Shown here: in pieces, positions 1,204 through 35,520 of the stretch
Layout: each line of letters starts with the position of its first letter
How positions within the stretch are numbered: the first letter of the stretch is position 1
Virus record (IMG/VR): IMGVR_UViG_3300032084_000368
Location: 1 to 36,820 of that record
Reading direction: 5' to 3' (one strand)
DNA length: 36,820 bases
DNA from: a virus
Taxonomy: Duplodnaviria > Caudoviricetes
The notes under the pieces: generated by a model
Database searches by the model: none
Told to the model about the DNA's origin: nothing
The model's input: the letters and a program-made list of their open reading frames with translations, nothing else
Program-made: the position numbers and the translations under genes

Positions 1204-4200
1204 ATGTCTAGTGAAAATTTTGATGCAACAACACAATCTAATGAGGTTAGATCTTTTTCGGAAGAAGAAATAAAAAATTTCTTTAAGAAAAGATTTGGAG
1301 AGATTAAAGCTACACCACCATCTAATGTAAAACTTGTGGATAAAGATGATGATGGTAATAGTAAATATGTGTTTGATAAAGATGCAGAGAATAGCATTTA
1401 TAAAGATCAACAATTAATTGATACTGCTAGAGCTTACTACTATGAAAGAGACGGTTTAAATTTTAAAACAGATGGGGGTGTTGTTGATAAGTTTATAAAT
1501 GATAGAACTTGGAAACAGGCAAATACTTATAGTATTGGTAAAGAATTAATTTATGCAACATCTGAAAGTGTTAGTGATGACCAGAAAAGAAGATTAGCAT
1601 ATCTAACAGATTATTGGGATGCTCTTCCTAATTTTTATGAAGCTGGTGGTAGAGGTTATATTGATGGTATTATATCAAACTTCGTTAAAGGTATTGTTGA
1701 TCCTACAAATTTAATTGGTCCTGGTGTAGCAAAAGCTACAATTGGAACAGCTGTATCACAAGCTGCAAAAAAAGGTGTAGATATAACTACTAAATCTGTA
1801 TTAAGAAAATCTATAGCTTATGGAACAGGTGCTATGTTTGCAACTGATGCAGCAGTAGGTGCTAGTGTTGATTTAGCAATACAAGCAACTGAAAAAGAAT
1901 TACAATTAAGAAATACTTACGATCCAAAAAGAATGTTTACATCAGCTATCATTCAAGGTGGTGTAGGTATTCTACCAGGACTACCTTATACATATGGTGC
2001 TGCAAAAACAAAAATTGAAGAAGCTGGTATAAAAAAATTTTTAGATAAAGCTGCACAATTTGCATTTGATTATGCACACCCTTTAAAAGAATTAAATAAT
2101 AGACTGTATGGTGTAAAAGCTAACATAGAGGGATATAAAGTTAAAGGAAAAGAAATTGATAAACTACTAAAAGATTATGCTGGTGATAATCCTGATAACT
2201 CTTTAAGTACAAAAATAAATAAGTATTTTAAATTAGACAATAGTGATTTAAGTGGTGGTGCAGGATTAGCTTTATCAAAAAAAGAAATTAGATTACTATC
2301 AGGTAAAGGTAAAGATACAAATTACTTATCTCACAGAGATCCTGGAGACTATGGTTATGTTTTGCTTAGACAACTTGCAGCTACATTTGCAAAAGCAGAA
2401 TCAGCTATAGTAGAAACTGGAAAAGTAACTTTACCTGTAACAGCATCTAGAAATTCAGTTGGTAAAGATTTAGGTATAGTTGTAAAGGGTGGTATGGAAG
2501 CCACAGATACTAAGCCCTTATTAAAAATATACGAATCAATTTCAGATTTAAAACTAGTTCCACAGTTTAATAATTACATTCAAGCGAGACGTTCACAAAT
2601 ATTAAATAATAGAGGTATTAAAACCTCTATGTCTAAACAAGATATTGAAAAAGCAATTGGTGAATATAATAAATTAAATTCAAATCAAAAACCATTATTT
2701 GATCAAGGTATAATAGAATTAAGGCAGTTTAGTAAAACTATGCTTGAATTACATAGAAGGGTTGGTATTATTTCTGATAAAGAATTTAATGCAATATTAA
2801 GAGCAAATCCTATCTATGCACCATTCTACACTAAAACACTTGATGCCACAATTAAAGATTTACAAGTGCTGGCAAAAATAAAAGAAGGTAGAACACCTAC
2901 GGCAATAACTGGTAAAGAACCTGCACCTACAAAAGGTGGAGTTAAAGGTCCTGTAAAATTTGAAATAACAGGTAGTGATAAAGAAGTTTTACCATTGCAT
3001 GAAGCATTTATGAAATATACTTTCTATGCCTACCAGGCATCAGAAAGAAACTTAGCTAAGTTAAGAGTATATGACGAAATTAATGAAGCTGTAGGTAGAG
3101 GTATATTTGAAGCAGGTGAAATAATTAGACCTGTAAAAAGAGTTGAGTTTGCAAAAGTATTAAAAAAACCTTTAATAAAAGCTATTGAAGAAGAGGCAGC
3201 TACTAGAGGTATAAAATTTAGTAAGAGATTAAGTTCAGAATTATTTGAAGGTGAAGATGCTATAAAAGTTATGTCACTTAAAAATAATTTTAAATTAGAT
3301 GATGGTAGAATTATAGATTTAGTTTATAAAAATGGAAAACTAAAAGCATATGAAATAGTAAAACCTGAATATGTAGATATGTTTAAATCTATAGGTGGTG
3401 TTACAGCTACATATATGAATAAGTTTGGTAATGAATTTTTAAATAAACTTATTCGTGGTGGTAATTTTAGAGGTAATACTAAAACAGGTAAAACTGCAAT
3501 AGCAATACGAGAAGTATCAAGAGCTTTTCCTAATTTTATTACACATAGTCCACCTTTTATTGCATTCAATGGTATTAGGGACACATTATCAGGCAGTGTA
3601 AATAGTGCATTTGGTTTTAATGCTTTAGGATTTTTTCCTGGATTAGATACTGCAATTGGATTAGGTAAAGGTTTTAATCCAACTAAAGCTATAGCAAAAG
3701 AATTACTTGGAACATTAAATCCAAAAGATCCTAACTTTTTAAAATTAATTCGTGGATTTAAAAATGCATTTCAAGTAAGTGATTATTACAGAAGAATGTT
3801 AAATGCAGGTGGTGGTTTTTCTGGTAGAAGAGATACAGAAAGATTATTAAGTAATTTAAATAGAAAAATAAAAAATGCAGATATTACTGCAAAAGATAAA
3901 AGTGCATATCAAAAATCTATTAATGGACTAAGAGAAATATTTTATTTTGGTGCTGATTTAGTTAAAGGTTATGGTCAGTTAGTTAATAGGGTAGAATATG
4001 CATCTAGACTAGGTGAATTTAATTTAGCTAAAAAAGCAGGAATGAGTGATAGAGTAGCTTCTTTCGCTGGTAGAGAAATATCAACTGATTTTGGAATGCA
4101 TGGTGCAAGCGTGGGATTAAATGCTTATAATAGAGTTACTATGTTTTTTCAAGCTAGTTTAAATGGATTTTATAGAGGAATATTAAGAAGACCTTTTGAA

Positions 4201-5445
4201 AGTCCAGGTAAATACGCTGCAGGTGTAGCAGCTACAGTTGTTGTTCCTGAATTAGTATTTTGGACACTTGCTAATGAAACTCCAGAGTATCAAGAATTAA
4301 GTGAAGATATAAAATTATTACACTATACAATACCTGTATATATGGAAGATCAAACAGATGGATCCCATCTTAGACTAATGCCTGATGGTAGCAGACAAAG
4401 AAAAATAAAACATTTTTTATTAATTCCAAAACCATATGACTTAGGTGCATTTGCAAATATATTTAGAGGTATTGCAGAAGGTGTACAAGAAGGTAATCCT
4501 CAAATAATAGTTCAATACTTCTTTGCATCTATTGCAAAAGTATTTCCAGGATTAGTTAAGCCTACACTATTATCACCTGTTATAGACTTATATATAAATA
4601 AAAATTATAAAAATAATCAAATCATACCATATTATAAAAGTAAAGGATTATTTAGAGATTCAATGGTTAATAGTAACACAAGGCCATCGGCTATTAAACT
4701 TGCAGGTTTTATAAATGAAATGTATAACTCAGCAGATTCATCTGTATTTTCTGATACAGGTGTTAGCCCACTAACAATAGATTATTTAATAAATAATTAC
4801 TTCGTAGGACTTTTACAATTTGCACCTGATATATCAGATGCTAAATTAGCTTGGGATGATAAAGCATATGGTCCAATGCCAGAAAAAAGAATTGATGAAA
4901 ATGATGTAGTTAATAATATATTTTCTATTATAACTAGAAGATTTGTAGCAAAAGCAACACCTACTAAATTTAGTGAAAATGTTTCATTAATATATACATT
5001 AAAAGCTAAAGCAGAAAAAATTACTTTAGATAAAAATAATGCATCAACTAATCTTATAAAAATTGCAAGAGATGGTGGAATAGATGTAGATAAACTTAAA
5101 GATGAAAGAGTACAGGATGCTGAGAGAGCATTACCAATGTTAACAACTGCAATACAAACAATTCAAGATTTAAGAGAATTAAGAGAAAGTGTTAAATTTA
5201 AAAAATTTGATTCTAATGGAGTGCCTTTAACAGCAGAAAGAAAATTAGAACTAATGGACAATTATAAAACACAAGAAAATCAATTAGCATTTAATGTATT
5301 AAAAGATATTAAAGAACTTAAAGATCCTACATTCTTTGTTAATTATTTCGGCACAAAAACTTACAAAGAATATAATAAAAAGAATATTAAAACTAGAAAA
5401 ATACAAAAAGTATTTGGAGATATTCAAACAAAGATATTTAATTAG
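1204..5445 (+). CDS. Large internal virion (ejection) protein with a C-terminal LPD38-like region
   Basis: 1413 aa, helical-looking, just before the lysis genes. C-terminal motifs (RLGEF...GREISTDF, TMFFQASLNG, HFLLIPKPYDLG) resemble the LPD38 domain of phage large polyvalent proteins. Confidence 0.7.
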   Translation: MSSENFDATTQSNEVRSFSEEEIKNFFKKRFGEIKATPPSNVKLVDKDDDGNSKYVFDKDAENSIYKDQQLIDTARAYYYERDGLNFKTDGGVVDKFINDRTWKQANTYSIGKELIYATSESVSDDQKRRLAYLTDYWDALPNFYEAGGRGYIDGIISNFVKGIVDPTNLIGPGVAKATIGTAVSQAAKKGVDITTKSVLRKSIAYGTGAMFATDAAVGASVDLAIQATEKELQLRNTYDPKRMFTSAIIQGGVGILPGLPYTYGAAKTKIEEAGIKKFLDKAAQFAFDYAHPLKELNNRLYGVKANIEGYKVKGKEIDKLLKDYAGDNPDNSLSTKINKYFKLDNSDLSGGAGLALSKKEIRLLSGKGKDTNYLSHRDPGDYGYVLLRQLAATFAKAESAIVETGKVTLPVTASRNSVGKDLGIVVKGGMEATDTKPLLKIYESISDLKLVPQFNNYIQARRSQILNNRGIKTSMSKQDIEKAIGEYNKLNSNQKPLFDQGIIELRQFSKTMLELHRRVGIISDKEFNAILRANPIYAPFYTKTLDATIKDLQVLAKIKEGRTPTAITGKEPAPTKGGVKGPVKFEITGSDKEVLPLHEAFMKYTFYAYQASERNLAKLRVYDEINEAVGRGIFEAGEIIRPVKRVEFAKVLKKPLIKAIEEEAATRGIKFSKRLSSELFEGEDAIKVMSLKNNFKLDDGRIIDLVYKNGKLKAYEIVKPEYVDMFKSIGGVTATYMNKFGNEFLNKLIRGGNFRGNTKTGKTAIAIREVSRAFPNFITHSPPFIAFNGIRDTLSGSVNSAFGFNALGFFPGLDTAIGLGKGFNPTKAIAKELLGTLNPKDPNFLKLIRGFKNAFQVSDYYRRMLNAGGGFSGRRDTERLLSNLNRKIKNADITAKDKSAYQKSINGLREIFYFGADLVKGYGQLVNRVEYASRLGEFNLAKKAGMSDRVASFAGREISTDFGMHGASVGLNAYNRVTMFFQASLNGFYRGILRRPFESPGKYAAGVAATVVVPELVFWTLANETPEYQELSEDIKLLHYTIPVYMEDQTDGSHLRLMPDGSRQRKIKHFLLIPKPYDLGAFANIFRGIAEGVQEGNPQIIVQYFFASIAKVFPGLVKPTLLSPVIDLYINKNYKNNQIIPYYKSKGLFRDSMVNSNTRPSAIKLAGFINEMYNSADSSVFSDTGVSPLTIDYLINNYFVGLLQFAPDISDAKLAWDDKAYGPMPEKRIDENDVVNNIFSIITRRFVAKATPTKFSENVSLIYTLKAKAEKITLDKNNASTNLIKIARDGGIDVDKLKDERVQDAERALPMLTTAIQTIQDLRELRESVKFKKFDSNGVPLTAERKLELMDNYKTQENQLAFNVLKDIKELKDPTFFVNYFGTKTYKEYNKKNIKTRKIQKVFGDIQTKIFN

Positions 5446-31294: not shown

Positions 31295-33391
31295 ATGGAA
31301 GAAGATAAAACTAAAAATGGCGGCTATGAAGCTGAGGGTAATCCTCTTGTCGGTTTTATAAGAAGTAGATTTCAACAAGCTGAAACATCAAAAGTATACG
31401 ATGAAAAAAGATGGTTAAAGGCTTATAGAAACTATAGAGGGATATACGGACCTGAAATGGCTTTTCGTGAAAACGAAAGGTCTAGAGTTTTTGTTAAAGT
31501 AACAAAGACTAAAGTCCTTGCTTCGTTTGGACAAATCATAGAAGTTTTATTTTCACAAGGTAAATTTCCATTAGGTGTAATGCCAACTTCTGTACCAGAA
31601 GATATTGCAGAAAGAGCACATCTAAAACAGCAGCAACAACAGCCTCAGCCACAAGAACCTATAAGTCCATATGGTTTTAATGGTGATGGAAGAATGATGC
31701 CACCAGGAGCAACTGCTGATGAGTTAATGAAAAATGTTGCACAGGAATACTCTAATTTAGGATTTACTGATGGTCCTGCCCCAGCTGGTGAACCACAAAT
31801 AGAACCAGCAAGAAAAGCTGCAGAAGCAATGCAAAAATTATTGCATGATCAATTAGAAGAAAGTAGAGCTATCACAATTATGCGTCATGTATTTTTTGAA
31901 ATGGCATTACTTGGTACAGGAATATTAAAAGGACCTTTTACAGATTTAAAAGAATATAATTCATTTGATAGTGCAGAAGATGATGAAGGTAATGAAATAA
32001 ATATTAGAGTTAAAAAAGTTAAAACTGTACCATCAATAGAAGCAGTATCGTGTTGGGATTTTTATCCAGATCCAAACGCAACTAATATGAATGATTGTGA
32101 TTATGTTATTCAAAGACATTCTTACAATAAACAACAGTTTCAAGATTTAATGGATAAACCTATGTTTAATGCTGAAGCAGTGCAAGAGTGTTTAGAGATG
32201 GGTCCTAATTATCAAACAAGAGGTTTTGAATCATCTCTTTATGATAGAGAAAATATACAAAGTATTTATAAAAATAGATTTGAAGTTTTAGAATATTGGG
32301 GTATAATAGATAAAAAAACTGCAGATGAATGTGGTTTAGAGTACGAAAGCACAGCTGAAGTAATATCTATTAATGCATGGATATGTGGTAATAAAGTTTT
32401 AAGAATGGTAGAAAATCCATTTATACCAAATAGAATACCATATTTAGTATGTCCATATGAATTAAACCCTTATCAATTTTTTGGTGTAGGTATTCCTGAG
32501 AATATGGAAGACTCACAATTAGTTATGAACGGTCATGCAAGAATGGCTATTGATAACTTAGCACTAGCTGGTAATTTAGTATTTGATGTTGATGAAACAA
32601 TGCTAGTACCAGGTCAGGATATGAAAGTATTTCCTGGTAAAATATTTAGAAGACAAAGTGGTCAAACAGGACAAGCTATACATGGAGTTAAGTTTCCTAA
32701 TACAGCTTATGAAAATTTACAAATGTTTGACAAGTTTAGACAGATTGCAGATGAAGCAACTGGTATTCCATCATACTCACATGGAGCAACAGGTGTACAA
32801 TCTACAACAAGAACTGCATCAGGCATGTCAATGCTTATGGGTGCAGCAGCATTAAGTATTAAAACAGTTATCAAAAATATTGATGACTATTTATTAAAGC
32901 CCCTAGGAGAATCATTATTTTATTGGAACATGCAATTTAATGAAGATACTCCACATATCAAAGGTGATCTAGAAATCAAAGCACAAGGAACTTCTTCTCT
33001 AATGCAGAAAGAAGTTAGATCTCAAAGATTAATGACATTCATGCAAACTGCATCTAATCCTGCACTTGCACCGTTTGTTAGATGGCATACATGTTTAACT
33101 GAAATAGCTAAATCTTTAGATATTGATCCAGATCAATTAATCAATGATCCAGAAAAAGCTGCGATCTATGCACAAATAATGGGGATGGCAAATGGAAATC
33201 AAAACAATACAGCCGCTGCTGGAGGACAAAGTGAAATGGGACAGACTGGCCCAGTACCTACAGGAGCTTCGCCAACAGATCCAACAGGAGTTGGAGGTGG
33301 CAACATCGGAACAGGTAATGTATCGATGCCAGGGGAAGCTGGCTTTAGTGCGGCAAATACTCAACCTAGAAGAGGCGAACAGACGGAATAA
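31295..33391 (+). CDS. Portal protein (head-tail connector)
   Basis: 698 aa between TerL and scaffold; LLGTGILKGP, DFYPDP, FFGVGIPE and TRTASGMSML motifs of podovirus portals; disordered tail. Confidence 0.9.
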   Translation: MEEDKTKNGGYEAEGNPLVGFIRSRFQQAETSKVYDEKRWLKAYRNYRGIYGPEMAFRENERSRVFVKVTKTKVLASFGQIIEVLFSQGKFPLGVMPTSVPEDIAERAHLKQQQQQPQPQEPISPYGFNGDGRMMPPGATADELMKNVAQEYSNLGFTDGPAPAGEPQIEPARKAAEAMQKLLHDQLEESRAITIMRHVFFEMALLGTGILKGPFTDLKEYNSFDSAEDDEGNEINIRVKKVKTVPSIEAVSCWDFYPDPNATNMNDCDYVIQRHSYNKQQFQDLMDKPMFNAEAVQECLEMGPNYQTRGFESSLYDRENIQSIYKNRFEVLEYWGIIDKKTADECGLEYESTAEVISINAWICGNKVLRMVENPFIPNRIPYLVCPYELNPYQFFGVGIPENMEDSQLVMNGHARMAIDNLALAGNLVFDVDETMLVPGQDMKVFPGKIFRRQSGQTGQAIHGVKFPNTAYENLQMFDKFRQIADEATGIPSYSHGATGVQSTTRTASGMSMLMGAAALSIKTVIKNIDDYLLKPLGESLFYWNMQFNEDTPHIKGDLEIKAQGTSSLMQKEVRSQRLMTFMQTASNPALAPFVRWHTCLTEIAKSLDIDPDQLINDPEKAAIYAQIMGMANGNQNNTAAAGGQSEMGQTGPVPTGASPTDPTGVGGGNIGTGNVSMPGEAGFSAANTQPRRGEQTE

Positions 33392-33398
33392 AGAATAA
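33192..33398 (+). CDS. Small helical protein nested in the portal C-terminus (alternative frame)
   Basis: GGGGA upstream; ..MYRCQGKLALVRQILNL motif typical of small post-portal proteins; TAATG-coupled to the next gene. Confidence 0.7.
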   Translation: MEIKTIQPLLEDKVKWDRLAQYLQELRQQIQQELEVATSEQVMYRCQGKLALVRQILNLEEANRRNKE

Positions 33399-34561
33399 TG
33401 GTATTACAACTAGTTAGAAATCCAGCAACAGGTGAATACGAATATAAAGATGCAATGGAAACAACTGCACCTAAAATTAATACCACTGATTTTGAAGCGT
33501 ACGAAAAAAAACAAGAAACGAAATTAGCAGGTGATACTAATATTGGAGAACAAACACAGCAACTTATTAGAGAAACACCTGGAGAGTATACTACAACATT
33601 TAATGAGCAAACAGGTCAGTTTGAAACTAAATCACAAGGTAGTGAAATAACTAATATACCTTTTCAAGCACCTACTGGTGTAACACCATCAGGACCTACA
33701 GAAACAGCTTTAGATAAAGTTTCAAAAATTACAGCAGCTACACAACCATCAAGTCCAGTAGATTTTCGTGGTGAAATAATGGCAATGCAAGATAAAGCGT
33801 TAAAAGCACAAAGAATAAATACATTAATTAAAGGTGGTTTTGATTTAGGTACAGCATATTTAAGATATGGAACTGGTCAGGGAACGGCTATGAATTTTAT
33901 GCCTACTACACAGTTAACACAAGTAGCAGCTACACCAATTGGTACTAGCACATTAGGTGGGGTTGGTACAGCAGGTGCTATTGGATATGGTGCAGGTAAA
34001 CTTATAGGTGCAAAAGAAAGTGAAGCAAGAGGTATGGGAGCAGGTGCTGCAATAGGAACAGCAGTTGGTGGACCAATAGGTGGAGTAATTGGTGGAGTAA
34101 TTGGTGGTGTAGTAGGATGTTTTTTACCTAATACAGAGATCACAATGGCTGATGGATCTAAGAAAAAAATTATAGATATAGAATTAAAAGATAATATTAA
34201 AGTTGGTGGAAATGTTTTTGCCACAGCAAAATTTTTAGTAACTAATTTATATGATTATAAAGGAGTTAAAGTTTCAGGTAGTCATATGGTTAATGAAAAT
34301 AATAAATGGATTAGAGTAGAAGATAGTGACATTGCAAAATCATTAGGTAATGATGAGCATGTTGTATATACGTTAGGCACACAAAATAGAAGAATAGTTA
34401 TAAATGATATATTATTTACTGACTATTTTGAAATAGATGAAAAAGAAGAATTAGTAAAACAAGGCGATAGTTACTTTGATAATTGGAAGTTACATTCAGA
34501 TTATTTATCTCAGCAAAATGTATATAAAATAAATGAAAAGCAGACTTTGGAACTTAGATAA
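33398..34561 (+). CDS. Glycine-zipper protein with a C-terminal Hedgehog/intein (Hint) autoprocessing domain
   Basis: GxxxG repeats end at G240|C241 FLPNTEITMADGSKKKIIDI (block A); VSGSH (block B); VVYTL...IVINDILFTDY (block F/G); no terminal His-Asn. Confidence 0.85.
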   Translation: MVLQLVRNPATGEYEYKDAMETTAPKINTTDFEAYEKKQETKLAGDTNIGEQTQQLIRETPGEYTTTFNEQTGQFETKSQGSEITNIPFQAPTGVTPSGPTETALDKVSKITAATQPSSPVDFRGEIMAMQDKALKAQRINTLIKGGFDLGTAYLRYGTGQGTAMNFMPTTQLTQVAATPIGTSTLGGVGTAGAIGYGAGKLIGAKESEARGMGAGAAIGTAVGGPIGGVIGGVIGGVVGCFLPNTEITMADGSKKKIIDIELKDNIKVGGNVFATAKFLVTNLYDYKGVKVSGSHMVNENNKWIRVEDSDIAKSLGNDEHVVYTLGTQNRRIVINDILFTDYFEIDEKEELVKQGDSYFDNWKLHSDYLSQQNVYKINEKQTLELR

Positions 34562-34991
34562 AGATTATAATCATTTAGTTAAATGGTGGGCACAATACGA
34601 TTTTGGTACTGTTCCTAAGCAATGTTTACCTCCTGAAGGTATTATAGTAGAAAATGATAACACACCTATATGTGCTGGAGGTTTATATAGATGTATAAAT
34701 TCAAACTTTGGTGTAATGGAATGGATTGTTGCTGATAAATTTGCACCATTGAAAGTAACACATAAAGCATTAAATTTATGTATACAAGAACTTTTATTAT
34801 TAGCTAAAAAATATAAAATAGAATTAGTATATTCAATGACTGCTAATAAATCTTTACATAAAAGATATACAAAATATCATAATATGAAATTAGTTGAAGA
34901 ACATGTTAAAACTTTTTTAAGTGATTTAAGTGGTAAATATAATAATTTAGAATGGATTACAAGTGAGGAAATATTAAATGGCAATAGATAA
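34533..34991 (+). CDS. GNAT-fold acetyltransferase-like protein
   Basis: 152 aa; GIIVE...PICAGGLY...GVMEWIVAD strands, then a helix and a LAKKYKIELVYSM pattern. Confidence 0.55.
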   Translation: MKSRLWNLDKDYNHLVKWWAQYDFGTVPKQCLPPEGIIVENDNTPICAGGLYRCINSNFGVMEWIVADKFAPLKVTHKALNLCIQELLLLAKKYKIELVYSMTANKSLHKRYTKYHNMKLVEEHVKTFLSDLSGKYNNLEWITSEEILNGNR

Positions 34992-35520
34992 TATGCAAGG
35001 TAAAGTATCTACAACAGGAATGATGAATCAAAAACCATCAGTTCCAAAAGCACCTAACTTAGCTAGTTTAGGTAAAAGAGAAACTGCACCTGCACCAAAA
35101 CAAACTACGCCACCAGCATCAGCTGGAACAACAAATACTTTAAAAGAACAATTTCCCGAAGCAAGCGAAACAGAATTAATGTTTGCTGAAAGGGCAAAAA
35201 GTTTAACCGATGAGGATCAAGCAGCATTACAAGCTGTTTTATCCCCATCTGTTAAAAATGCATTAGGTAAAATTATACCTGAATTTAAACCAGTAATGGA
35301 TCAATTTGGAAGTAATGAACCTAATGTAGTCTTACCTGTATCTATCGTATCTAATTACGCAAAAAGAAGATATGGTGGAAATGACGATGAAGCACTTGCT
35401 GCTTTTATTGAAGATGTATCAGGTCAGATGGAAACACAACAACAAACAAATGTGCCACCTAGTCAACCTACAGAAACTGCAGGTTTAATGACTAGCCCAC
35501 AAAATATGGAACAAGTTTAG
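34978..35520 (+). CDS. Hypothetical head-module protein
   Basis: 180 aa, GAGG RBS, Pro/Gln-rich ends. Confidence 0.7.
   Translation: MAIDNMQGKVSTTGMMNQKPSVPKAPNLASLGKRETAPAPKQTTPPASAGTTNTLKEQFPEASETELMFAERAKSLTDEDQAALQAVLSPSVKNALGKIIPEFKPVMDQFGSNEPNVVLPVSIVSNYAKRRYGGNDDEALAAFIEDVSGQMETQQQTNVPPSQPTETAGLMTSPQNMEQV

Follow-up and report, generated by a model that had tools for sequence, protein, structure and literature searches.

A two-gene cassette in the head module of an environmental virus genome seems to encode a self-cleaving, non-splicing Hint cap and a GNAT-fold protein that would act at the Gly240–Cys241 junction of the capped protein by acyl transfer, a reading to which a probability of about 0.5 can be assigned. 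The Hint cap and the GNAT are gained and lost jointly by related phages and, thus, a two-gene maturation system is likely. The cap would be a new subtype of Hint domain with a tightly co-inherited GNAT, undescribed in the literature searched; that search, with most subscription papers outside its reach, returned no description of the Hint subtype or of the Hint–GNAT pair, and the words "Hint" and "intein" do not occur in the main text of either PMC9038755 or PMC12014285.

The window, that is, the whole stretch of 36,820 nt that was analysed, is IMG/VR record IMGVR_UViG_3300032084_000368, a 36.8-kb virus genome with terminase, portal, scaffold-like, and major head genes, and PHROG matches identify the portal (phrog_1216/332) and the major head protein (phrog_267). 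The gene of the 387-aa Hint protein lies in the slot between portal and scaffold genes (Table 1). The DNA polymerase A carries a DnaJ insert with two CXXCXGXG motifs, which places the genome among the HMO-2011-type phages, for which this insert is the defining criterion in the accessible part of PMC9038755; the same source ranks HMO-2011-type pelagiphages among the most abundant phages. Moreover, the portal is 85% identical to that of pelagiphage HTVC033P and the sequencing runs matching the window are seawater metagenomes; we infer a SAR11 host. The 68-aa ORF upstream is coupled to the start of the Hint gene, has a counterpart annotated as a gene in HMO-2011, and occurs with both alleles of the slot, i.e., the Hint allele and an alternative one capped by a different C-terminal domain, ICT, while the 180-aa ORF lies directly 3' of the ICT cap in ICT alleles. 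Contigs from RNA libraries (X15) span the locus (33344–34186 and 34162–35474), which is not proof of transcription. Elsewhere in the window, a 1413-aa protein with an LPD38 domain (1204–5445; Pfam E 8e-21) is probably the large ejection protein, and no second Hint, ICT copy, or same-family GNAT was found.

Table 1. Features of the Hint–GNAT locus, in window coordinates.
Feature	Position	Strand	Remarks
Conserved 68-aa ORF	33192..33398	+	overlaps last 200 nt of portal 3' end, in another frame
Passenger–Hint fusion protein, 387 aa	33398..34561	+	slot between portal and scaffold genes
Variable N-terminal passenger, residues 1–213	33398..34036	+	no Pfam family; common to ICT-capped alleles
Glycine zipper, residues 214–240	34037..34117	+	mildly hydrophobic; kept in close homologues
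Compact Hint core C241–D342, 102 aa	34118..34423	+	predicted model, structure matches, residue conservation
C-terminal extension Y343–R387	34424..34558	+	YxE, then one long predicted helix; conserved Asn379
GNAT-fold protein, 152 aa	34533..34991	+	predicted model; translationally coupled to Hint gene
Conserved 180-aa ORF	34978..35520	+	right-hand edge of swapped cassette

The initial annotation had described a glycine zipper ending at G240|C241, where a Hint domain of the non-splicing type would begin, with a block B His, an IVINDILFTDY terminus instead of the His–Asn of inteins, and a tail of about 40 residues, and all of this was recovered in the ORF at 33398–34561: the Cys1 codon is TGT at 34118–34120, block B His296 (codon at 34283) is held in an SGSH motif, IVINDILFTDY comprises residues 333–343 with the Asp342 codon at 34421, and 44 residues follow. 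The Hint fold itself is borne out by an AlphaFold2 model built from a 56-row alignment (pLDDT 90.5, pTM 0.79), with a beta core to model residue 101 and one helix at 106–146. In VIA-align, this model reaches Z-scores of 11–14 to 22 Hint chains, compared with about 5 for unrelated rows; the matches include the MchDnaB-1 intein (Z 14.1, rmsd 1.8, 100 aligned residues), BIL2 (Z 13.4, 1.9, 104), a C. thermocellum BIL (Z 13.3, 1.7, 101), Hedgehog 1at0 (Z 12.7, 2.1, 102), and Vint 8r2c (Z 11.3, 2.5, 105). Foldseek gave 13 matches at E ≤ 0.001, all of them inteins or BILs. At the sequence level, Pfam returned a weak Hom_end_hint match (E 0.009, below cut-off), NCBIfam nothing above cut-off for the window proteins, and a search against solved structures only block A or block B matches to inteins. 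By its predicted fold together with Cys1 and His, the domain belongs to the Hint superfamily. In the alignments, D342 (residue 102 of the model) falls opposite the final residue in several inteins (2imz 440, 1am2 198, 1dq3 454, 2cw8 537) and, therefore, the Hint core is taken to be 102 residues long, shorter than the aligned mini-inteins (chains of 127–145 residues).

Residue conservation was counted over 345 distinct domains, left from 506 aligned rows after removal of duplicates and of rows with a gap at position 1 or position 102, a procedure that favours Cys1. Cys1 and the terminal Asp are present in all 345, the block B His in 343, and Glu or Asp at +3 in 341; the +1 residue is Tyr in 312 and Phe in 14, the penultimate residue is Thr, Ala, or Ser (T341 in the window), and the residue at −1 is Gly in 248, Phe in 37, and Ser in 17. 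The block F Asp is absent, position F:4 being Val in 133 and Thr in 124 of the 345, and in block B a Ser mostly takes the place of the Thr. The first-step residues are, thus, intact while the His–Asn and a +1 nucleophile are missing, a combination that would allow step 1 and not splicing under the rules set out in the accessible part of PMC4031507, as had been suspected from the window sequence. That the domain is an intein or BIL active in splicing or in C-terminal cleavage can hardly be credited: mini-inteins and BILs are the best structural matches, but the penultimate, terminal, and +1 residues all depart from the canonical requirements as given there, and the domain is not inserted in a conserved host gene.

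The family comprises 1563 representatives at E ≤ 0.001, and 720 homologues of the Hint protein were found at the same threshold among 7998 candidates scored. The window Hint protein had no match among 50,697 cultured phage records, a set that may lack near relatives, and a distant Hint query matched only two intein N-termini. A scan of bacterial genomes yielded two loci among 50 pattern matches and, at that sensitivity, the family looks mainly viral.

The zipper (GAGAAIG...GGVVG) holds 12 Gly in 27 residues in nine GxxxG registers, with a best 19-residue Kyte–Doolittle mean of 1.6–1.8 at 222–243. The G-C-[FLY] junction behind it is kept in 119 of 120 close homologues, the exception (P0110) retaining the N-terminus and zipper in front of the ICT domain. 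That the zipper, on which the initial annotation had built its inference, is the core of the system is not supported by comparison across the 80 Hint-anchored IMG/VR loci found with the protein alignment: only 34 have a zipper-type N-terminus, while 46 have unrelated passengers that mostly end in polar poly-Gly linkers. LysM, lysozyme, DUF4815, or glycine-rich domains were seen on other passengers; the same zipper also precedes the ICT cap, and Gly is not universal at −1. The conserved unit is Hint plus GNAT, and the zipper is one of many passengers. Judging by where its gene lies and by weak PHROG matches in the zipper, the window passenger is likely an ejection or head-assembly protein. These data also bear on a route modelled on Hedgehog, the transfer to Gly240 of a lipid or of a sterol-like alcohol, in which the tail helix would recognise the acceptor, the zipper would anchor the product in a membrane, and the GNAT would be catalytically unneeded. 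The C-terminal Hint followed by an extension, as in Hog (PMC7765530, in its accessible part), the zipper hydropathy, and the hydrophobic helix before Cys in giant-virus members agree with such a transfer; however, most passengers end in polar linkers, the tail is a single polar helix and is down to about 10 aa in some GNAT-bearing homologues (L015, L020, L033), the motif J Cys of Hog is lacking, and no Pfam Hint family matches above cut-off, so that this route seems very improbable.

The overlapping GNAT-like gene had been put forward as a possible partner to be tested by co-occurrence, and it follows the Hint gene in 76 of the 80 Hint-anchored loci (adjacent in 74, within 2 kb in 2), the other four having 0–609 bp of downstream sequence. 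Of 64 new GNAT-anchored loci, 37 have an adjacent Hint, another 25 have one no more than 2 kb away, and the remaining two have 3–71 bp upstream; the two locus sets have contigs in common. The genes overlap by 29 nt in the window, and an 11-nt overlap recurs in 73 of 123 adjacent pairs (all loci, redundant ones included). Besides the podovirus head slot, several unrelated modules carry the pair, among them T4-like fibre, baseplate, and DUF4815 contexts, and the window-type GNAT accompanies Hint even across two to three intervening genes. Divergence of the two proteins is only weakly correlated (Spearman 0.33 over 1485 non-independent pairs), a point against coupling. At 47 loci with distant Hints, a GNAT follows in 31, the window type being adjacent in 11 and nearby in 7 and a second, shorter family adjacent in 13, a count that is partly circular, since the short-type profile was built from distant-Hint neighbours; 14 loci have no GNAT match downstream and 2 are too short. 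This second family matches Pfam Acetyltransf at E < 0.001 in 8 of 13 and often has [RK]xxG. Of the 14 GNAT-less loci, which include two in the same head slot (L181, L185) and a giant-virus locus (L182), two have less than 900 bp downstream and one has a GNAT upstream. Podovirus ejection modules as a rule include an acetyltransferase gene (IVP-A) whose product is not part of the virion (PMC4819975, as far as its accessible part covers them), and many distant-Hint loci are modules of this kind, which can explain the distant GNAT adjacency. The same observation lends weight to a rival account, in which Hint would hydrolyse unaided to leave a free C-terminus and the GNAT would be an IVP-A-like assembly factor that co-travels in one recombining block and acylates the passenger or another virion protein. 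Hint without GNAT at L181, L185, and 12 other distant loci also fits such hydrolysis. It is at odds with the presence of the same GNAT family behind Hint in T4-like fibre and in DUF4815 modules, even with other genes in between; this account is possible, although we doubt it.

The exchange of the Hint cap for ICT provides a natural control. ICT is a C-terminal domain of about 110 aa, unrelated to Hint, that begins with [VI][IV]C[TSN] in 42 of 44 distinct starts, followed by GY..WA.P, and examples include L193:5001–6047, L220–L290, HTVC033P gp76 (L291:3175–4812), and HMO-2011 gp49 (L292:2563–4851). At least 2672 longer proteins match it (7989 candidates scored); PHROGs gave one marginal match and the Atlas unnamed viral clusters only. 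Its identification as NCBIfam CFI-box-CTERM is not supported, as 0 of 11 members match, and "CFI-box" had no mention in the literature searched. With its conserved Cys behind a Gly-rich linker, ICT is a candidate second self-processing or sorting cap. Over 86 distinct scaffolds from 128 loci, the head slot holds Hint plus GNAT in 30, ICT without GNAT in 53, Hint plus GNAT with a separate ICT in 1, and Hint without GNAT in 2. Only 1 of 93 ICT loci holds a GNAT, and that locus also has Hint; the complete genomes of HTVC033P and HMO-2011 carry the ICT allele and neither has a GNAT match, in a search run without a positive control. A scaffold tree from a quick IQ-TREE run (LG+G4, SH-aLRT only, a warning for one long branch) calls for a minimum of 16 changes in each trait; ten independent pairs on starred branches gave 9.7 in the same direction and 0 in the opposite one (sign test, p ~0.002). 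In the head-module slot, ICT serves as an alternative cap that is independent of the GNAT. In another context, an ICT-capped DUF4815 protein (L262) lacks the GNAT that its Hint-capped homologues have at the same place (one case), and at L258 an intein-like HN-type Hint stands in tandem before ICT, without GNAT.

Hint and GNAT form one contiguous block and the alleles lack internal homology and, therefore, repeated exchange of that block would produce this covariation even with no chemical link; it shows co-inheritance, not chemistry. The argument goes beyond linkage because ICT phages manage without the GNAT, the GNAT tracks Hint across genes, and the DUF4815 protein with ICT lacks it. Moreover, if the GNAT were a general assembly factor, as unaided hydrolysis would have it, ICT phages should need it too, but 92 of 93 ICT loci and the two complete genomes are without it. 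The allele exchange also suggests that Hint could stay uncleaved, as a folded cap (an assembly chaperone or a packaging or targeting tag) bound by the GNAT and interchangeable with the presumably helical ICT. Replacement by a domain of no known chemistry, the missing block F Asp, the Ser that mostly stands for the block B Thr, and the second Hint copy of giant-virus proteins, usually without Cys1, are in line with an inert cap, which nevertheless appears improbable, given that Cys1 and the block B His are kept while neighbouring residues vary and that flexible Gly-rich linkers precede Cys in most phage members.

Several variants of the cassette were observed. In T4-like contexts (L095:4775–6465, L154:5546–7177, L159, L160), a longer version has, between the Hint gene and the GNAT, first one or two genes resembling Asp/Asn beta-hydroxylases and then an SDR-like gene; the hydroxylase and SDR genes are missing from the close variants L096, L111, and L147. 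Tandem caps, in which an intein-like Hint ending His-Asn-Lys directly precedes an FxDY Hint, occur at L073, L074, L077, L078, L080, L096, and L138. A stand-alone Cys-less Hint copy lies between a Hint gene and its GNAT (L179:5425–5880) and a stand-alone ICT ORF behind Hint and GNAT (L065:4979–5371); these orphan caps are possibly leftovers of cap replacement. Giant-virus-type proteins (L182:3339–6332, P0232–P0268), with BFVD matches to Megaviridae samples, carry two tandem Hint copies behind a hydrophobic helix, the second usually without Cys1, and in a GVMAG contig (L182) two tandem-Hint genes are adjacent, with no GNAT nearby (one locus).

That the neighbouring gene is GNAT-like was read correctly from the window: its AlphaFold model (pLDDT 89.6) best matches RimI 5isv (Z 16.4, rmsd 1.9, 128 aligned), with Ard1 at Z 15.9 and many near-ties, while Pfam and a sequence search against solved structures gave no match for the ORF at 34533–34991. 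C47, T103, and Y112 are invariant in 55 of 55 sequences, and Y112 sits at what we take to be the site of the Tyr with which GNATs protonate the leaving thiol. No conserved Gly, and hence no Gly-rich CoA-pyrophosphate loop, is found in the motif A loop (columns 69–78, 55 sequences). The loss of this loop had been considered a mark of a Hint-specific donor, but relatives of the window GNAT occur in 67 cultured Bacteroidota-phage and other records, including Cellulophaga and Flavobacterium phages, and the three that were inspected have no Hint neighbour, no Gly loop, and Tyr112 in one of three. Since Hint-less relatives are also without the loop, its loss is a weak sign of Hint-specific donor use, and the proposal is weakened; carriage of such relatives by Hint-less cultured phages fits unaided hydrolysis as well.

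By analogy with known Hint chemistry (PMC7765530, in the part available), an N-to-S shift at Cys241, assisted by His296, would convert the Gly240 bond into a thioester, and the cap likely cuts itself off and is released from the passenger. The role of the GNAT is the weakest step of the preferred scheme. In the form of coupling that we tentatively prefer, the GNAT might resolve the thioester through transfer of the Gly240 acyl group onto an amine; in a second coupling, which we regard as rather unlikely, it would acylate the freed Cys241 amine, so that the shift becomes irreversible and the thioester is left to hydrolyse. Under either coupling, the passenger would gain a defined new C-terminus. 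A GNAT with Tyr112 and without a Gly-rich CoA loop might suit a protein-bound thioester donor, to a weak degree. The variable residue at −1 and the truncation in some members of the tail, a candidate for recognising the acceptor, are points against coupling, and water, no less than an amine, could be activated through Asp342, in keeping with unaided hydrolysis. Taken furthest, acyl transfer by the GNAT could make the pair a two-component protein ligase, a speculative proposal with the odds against it, in which the Hint thioester would be the acyl carrier for a GNAT lacking the CoA loop. Equally speculatively, the passenger C-terminus might be joined to an amine of a lipid head group, a small molecule, or a virion protein, any such small molecule conceivably owing its synthesis to the hydroxylase and SDR genes that some variants have nearby; the cassette might be portable onto any structural protein and an allelic competitor of the Cys-bearing ICT cap, and the tandem proteins of giant viruses might be its GNAT-free relatives.

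To our knowledge, known Hint domains act alone, by splicing, by cleavage, or by cholesterol transfer through an attached recognition region. If the preferred reading is true, Hint chemistry would here be completed in a new manner, with the help of a separate enzyme, and the pair would be a candidate tool for labelling proteins at the C-terminus; use of the Hint thioester as donor by the GNAT, a doubtful prospect, would be categorically new. The cultured phages HTVC033P and HMO-2011 supply the ICT allele for direct comparison.

Compared with known systems, the phage domain resembles Hog (1at0; Z 12.7) in being a C-terminal, non-splicing Hint behind a Gly|Cys-Phe junction and followed by an extension, and in this architecture the "Hedgehog-like" label first given to it holds. 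The label does not extend to the Z-scores, which do not favour Hedgehog, or to motif J, where Asp replaces the Cys; moreover, the phage Hint has 102 residues versus 145 in Hog, lacks a signal peptide, is viral, and travels with a GNAT, and Pfam recognises no sterol-recognition motifs K and L, with no PF01079 match for the window protein. Model residues 1–104 align with 1at0 258–402; provided that this alignment has no gap at its end, D342 corresponds to position 400, which presumably is the motif J Cys of Hog. Some protist Hogs have Ser or other replacements of this Cys, according to the available part of PMC2362128.

Vint (PF14623; 8r2c; Burglin 2008, PMC2362128, in its available part) is likewise a small C-terminal Hint that keeps motifs A and B, and it is the nearest family by language-model features in the Atlas (score 0.97, with Vint on 13–94% of viral cluster members). 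PF14623 is above cut-off in some giant-virus-type relatives, while the window domain has no Vint match at E ≤ 0.05. In contrast to Vint, neither a VWA nor a Vwaint domain is detected by Pfam in the window protein and 26 relatives, and the phage domain is set apart by its FxDYxE terminus and helix. The highest Z-scores (13.3–14.1) are those to bacterial BIL domains and mini-inteins of class 1 (2lwy, 6tmm, 6riy) and, like BILs, the phage domain sits on hypervariable proteins; it differs from both in having no His–Asn, +1 nucleophile, or block F Asp. Finally, the GNAT recalls the podovirus IVP-A (T7 gp13 family; Hardies et al., PMC4819975, as described in its accessible part), a small GNAT-fold gene of the virion module that is presumably non-structural. 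However, the window GNAT is a head-module gene with a Hint gene coupled to it, can be dispensed with when the cap is ICT, and belongs to a family that is also present in T4-like fibre and baseplate modules. The pair provides a testable handle on the role of the small, required, and unexplained acetyltransferases of phage virion modules.
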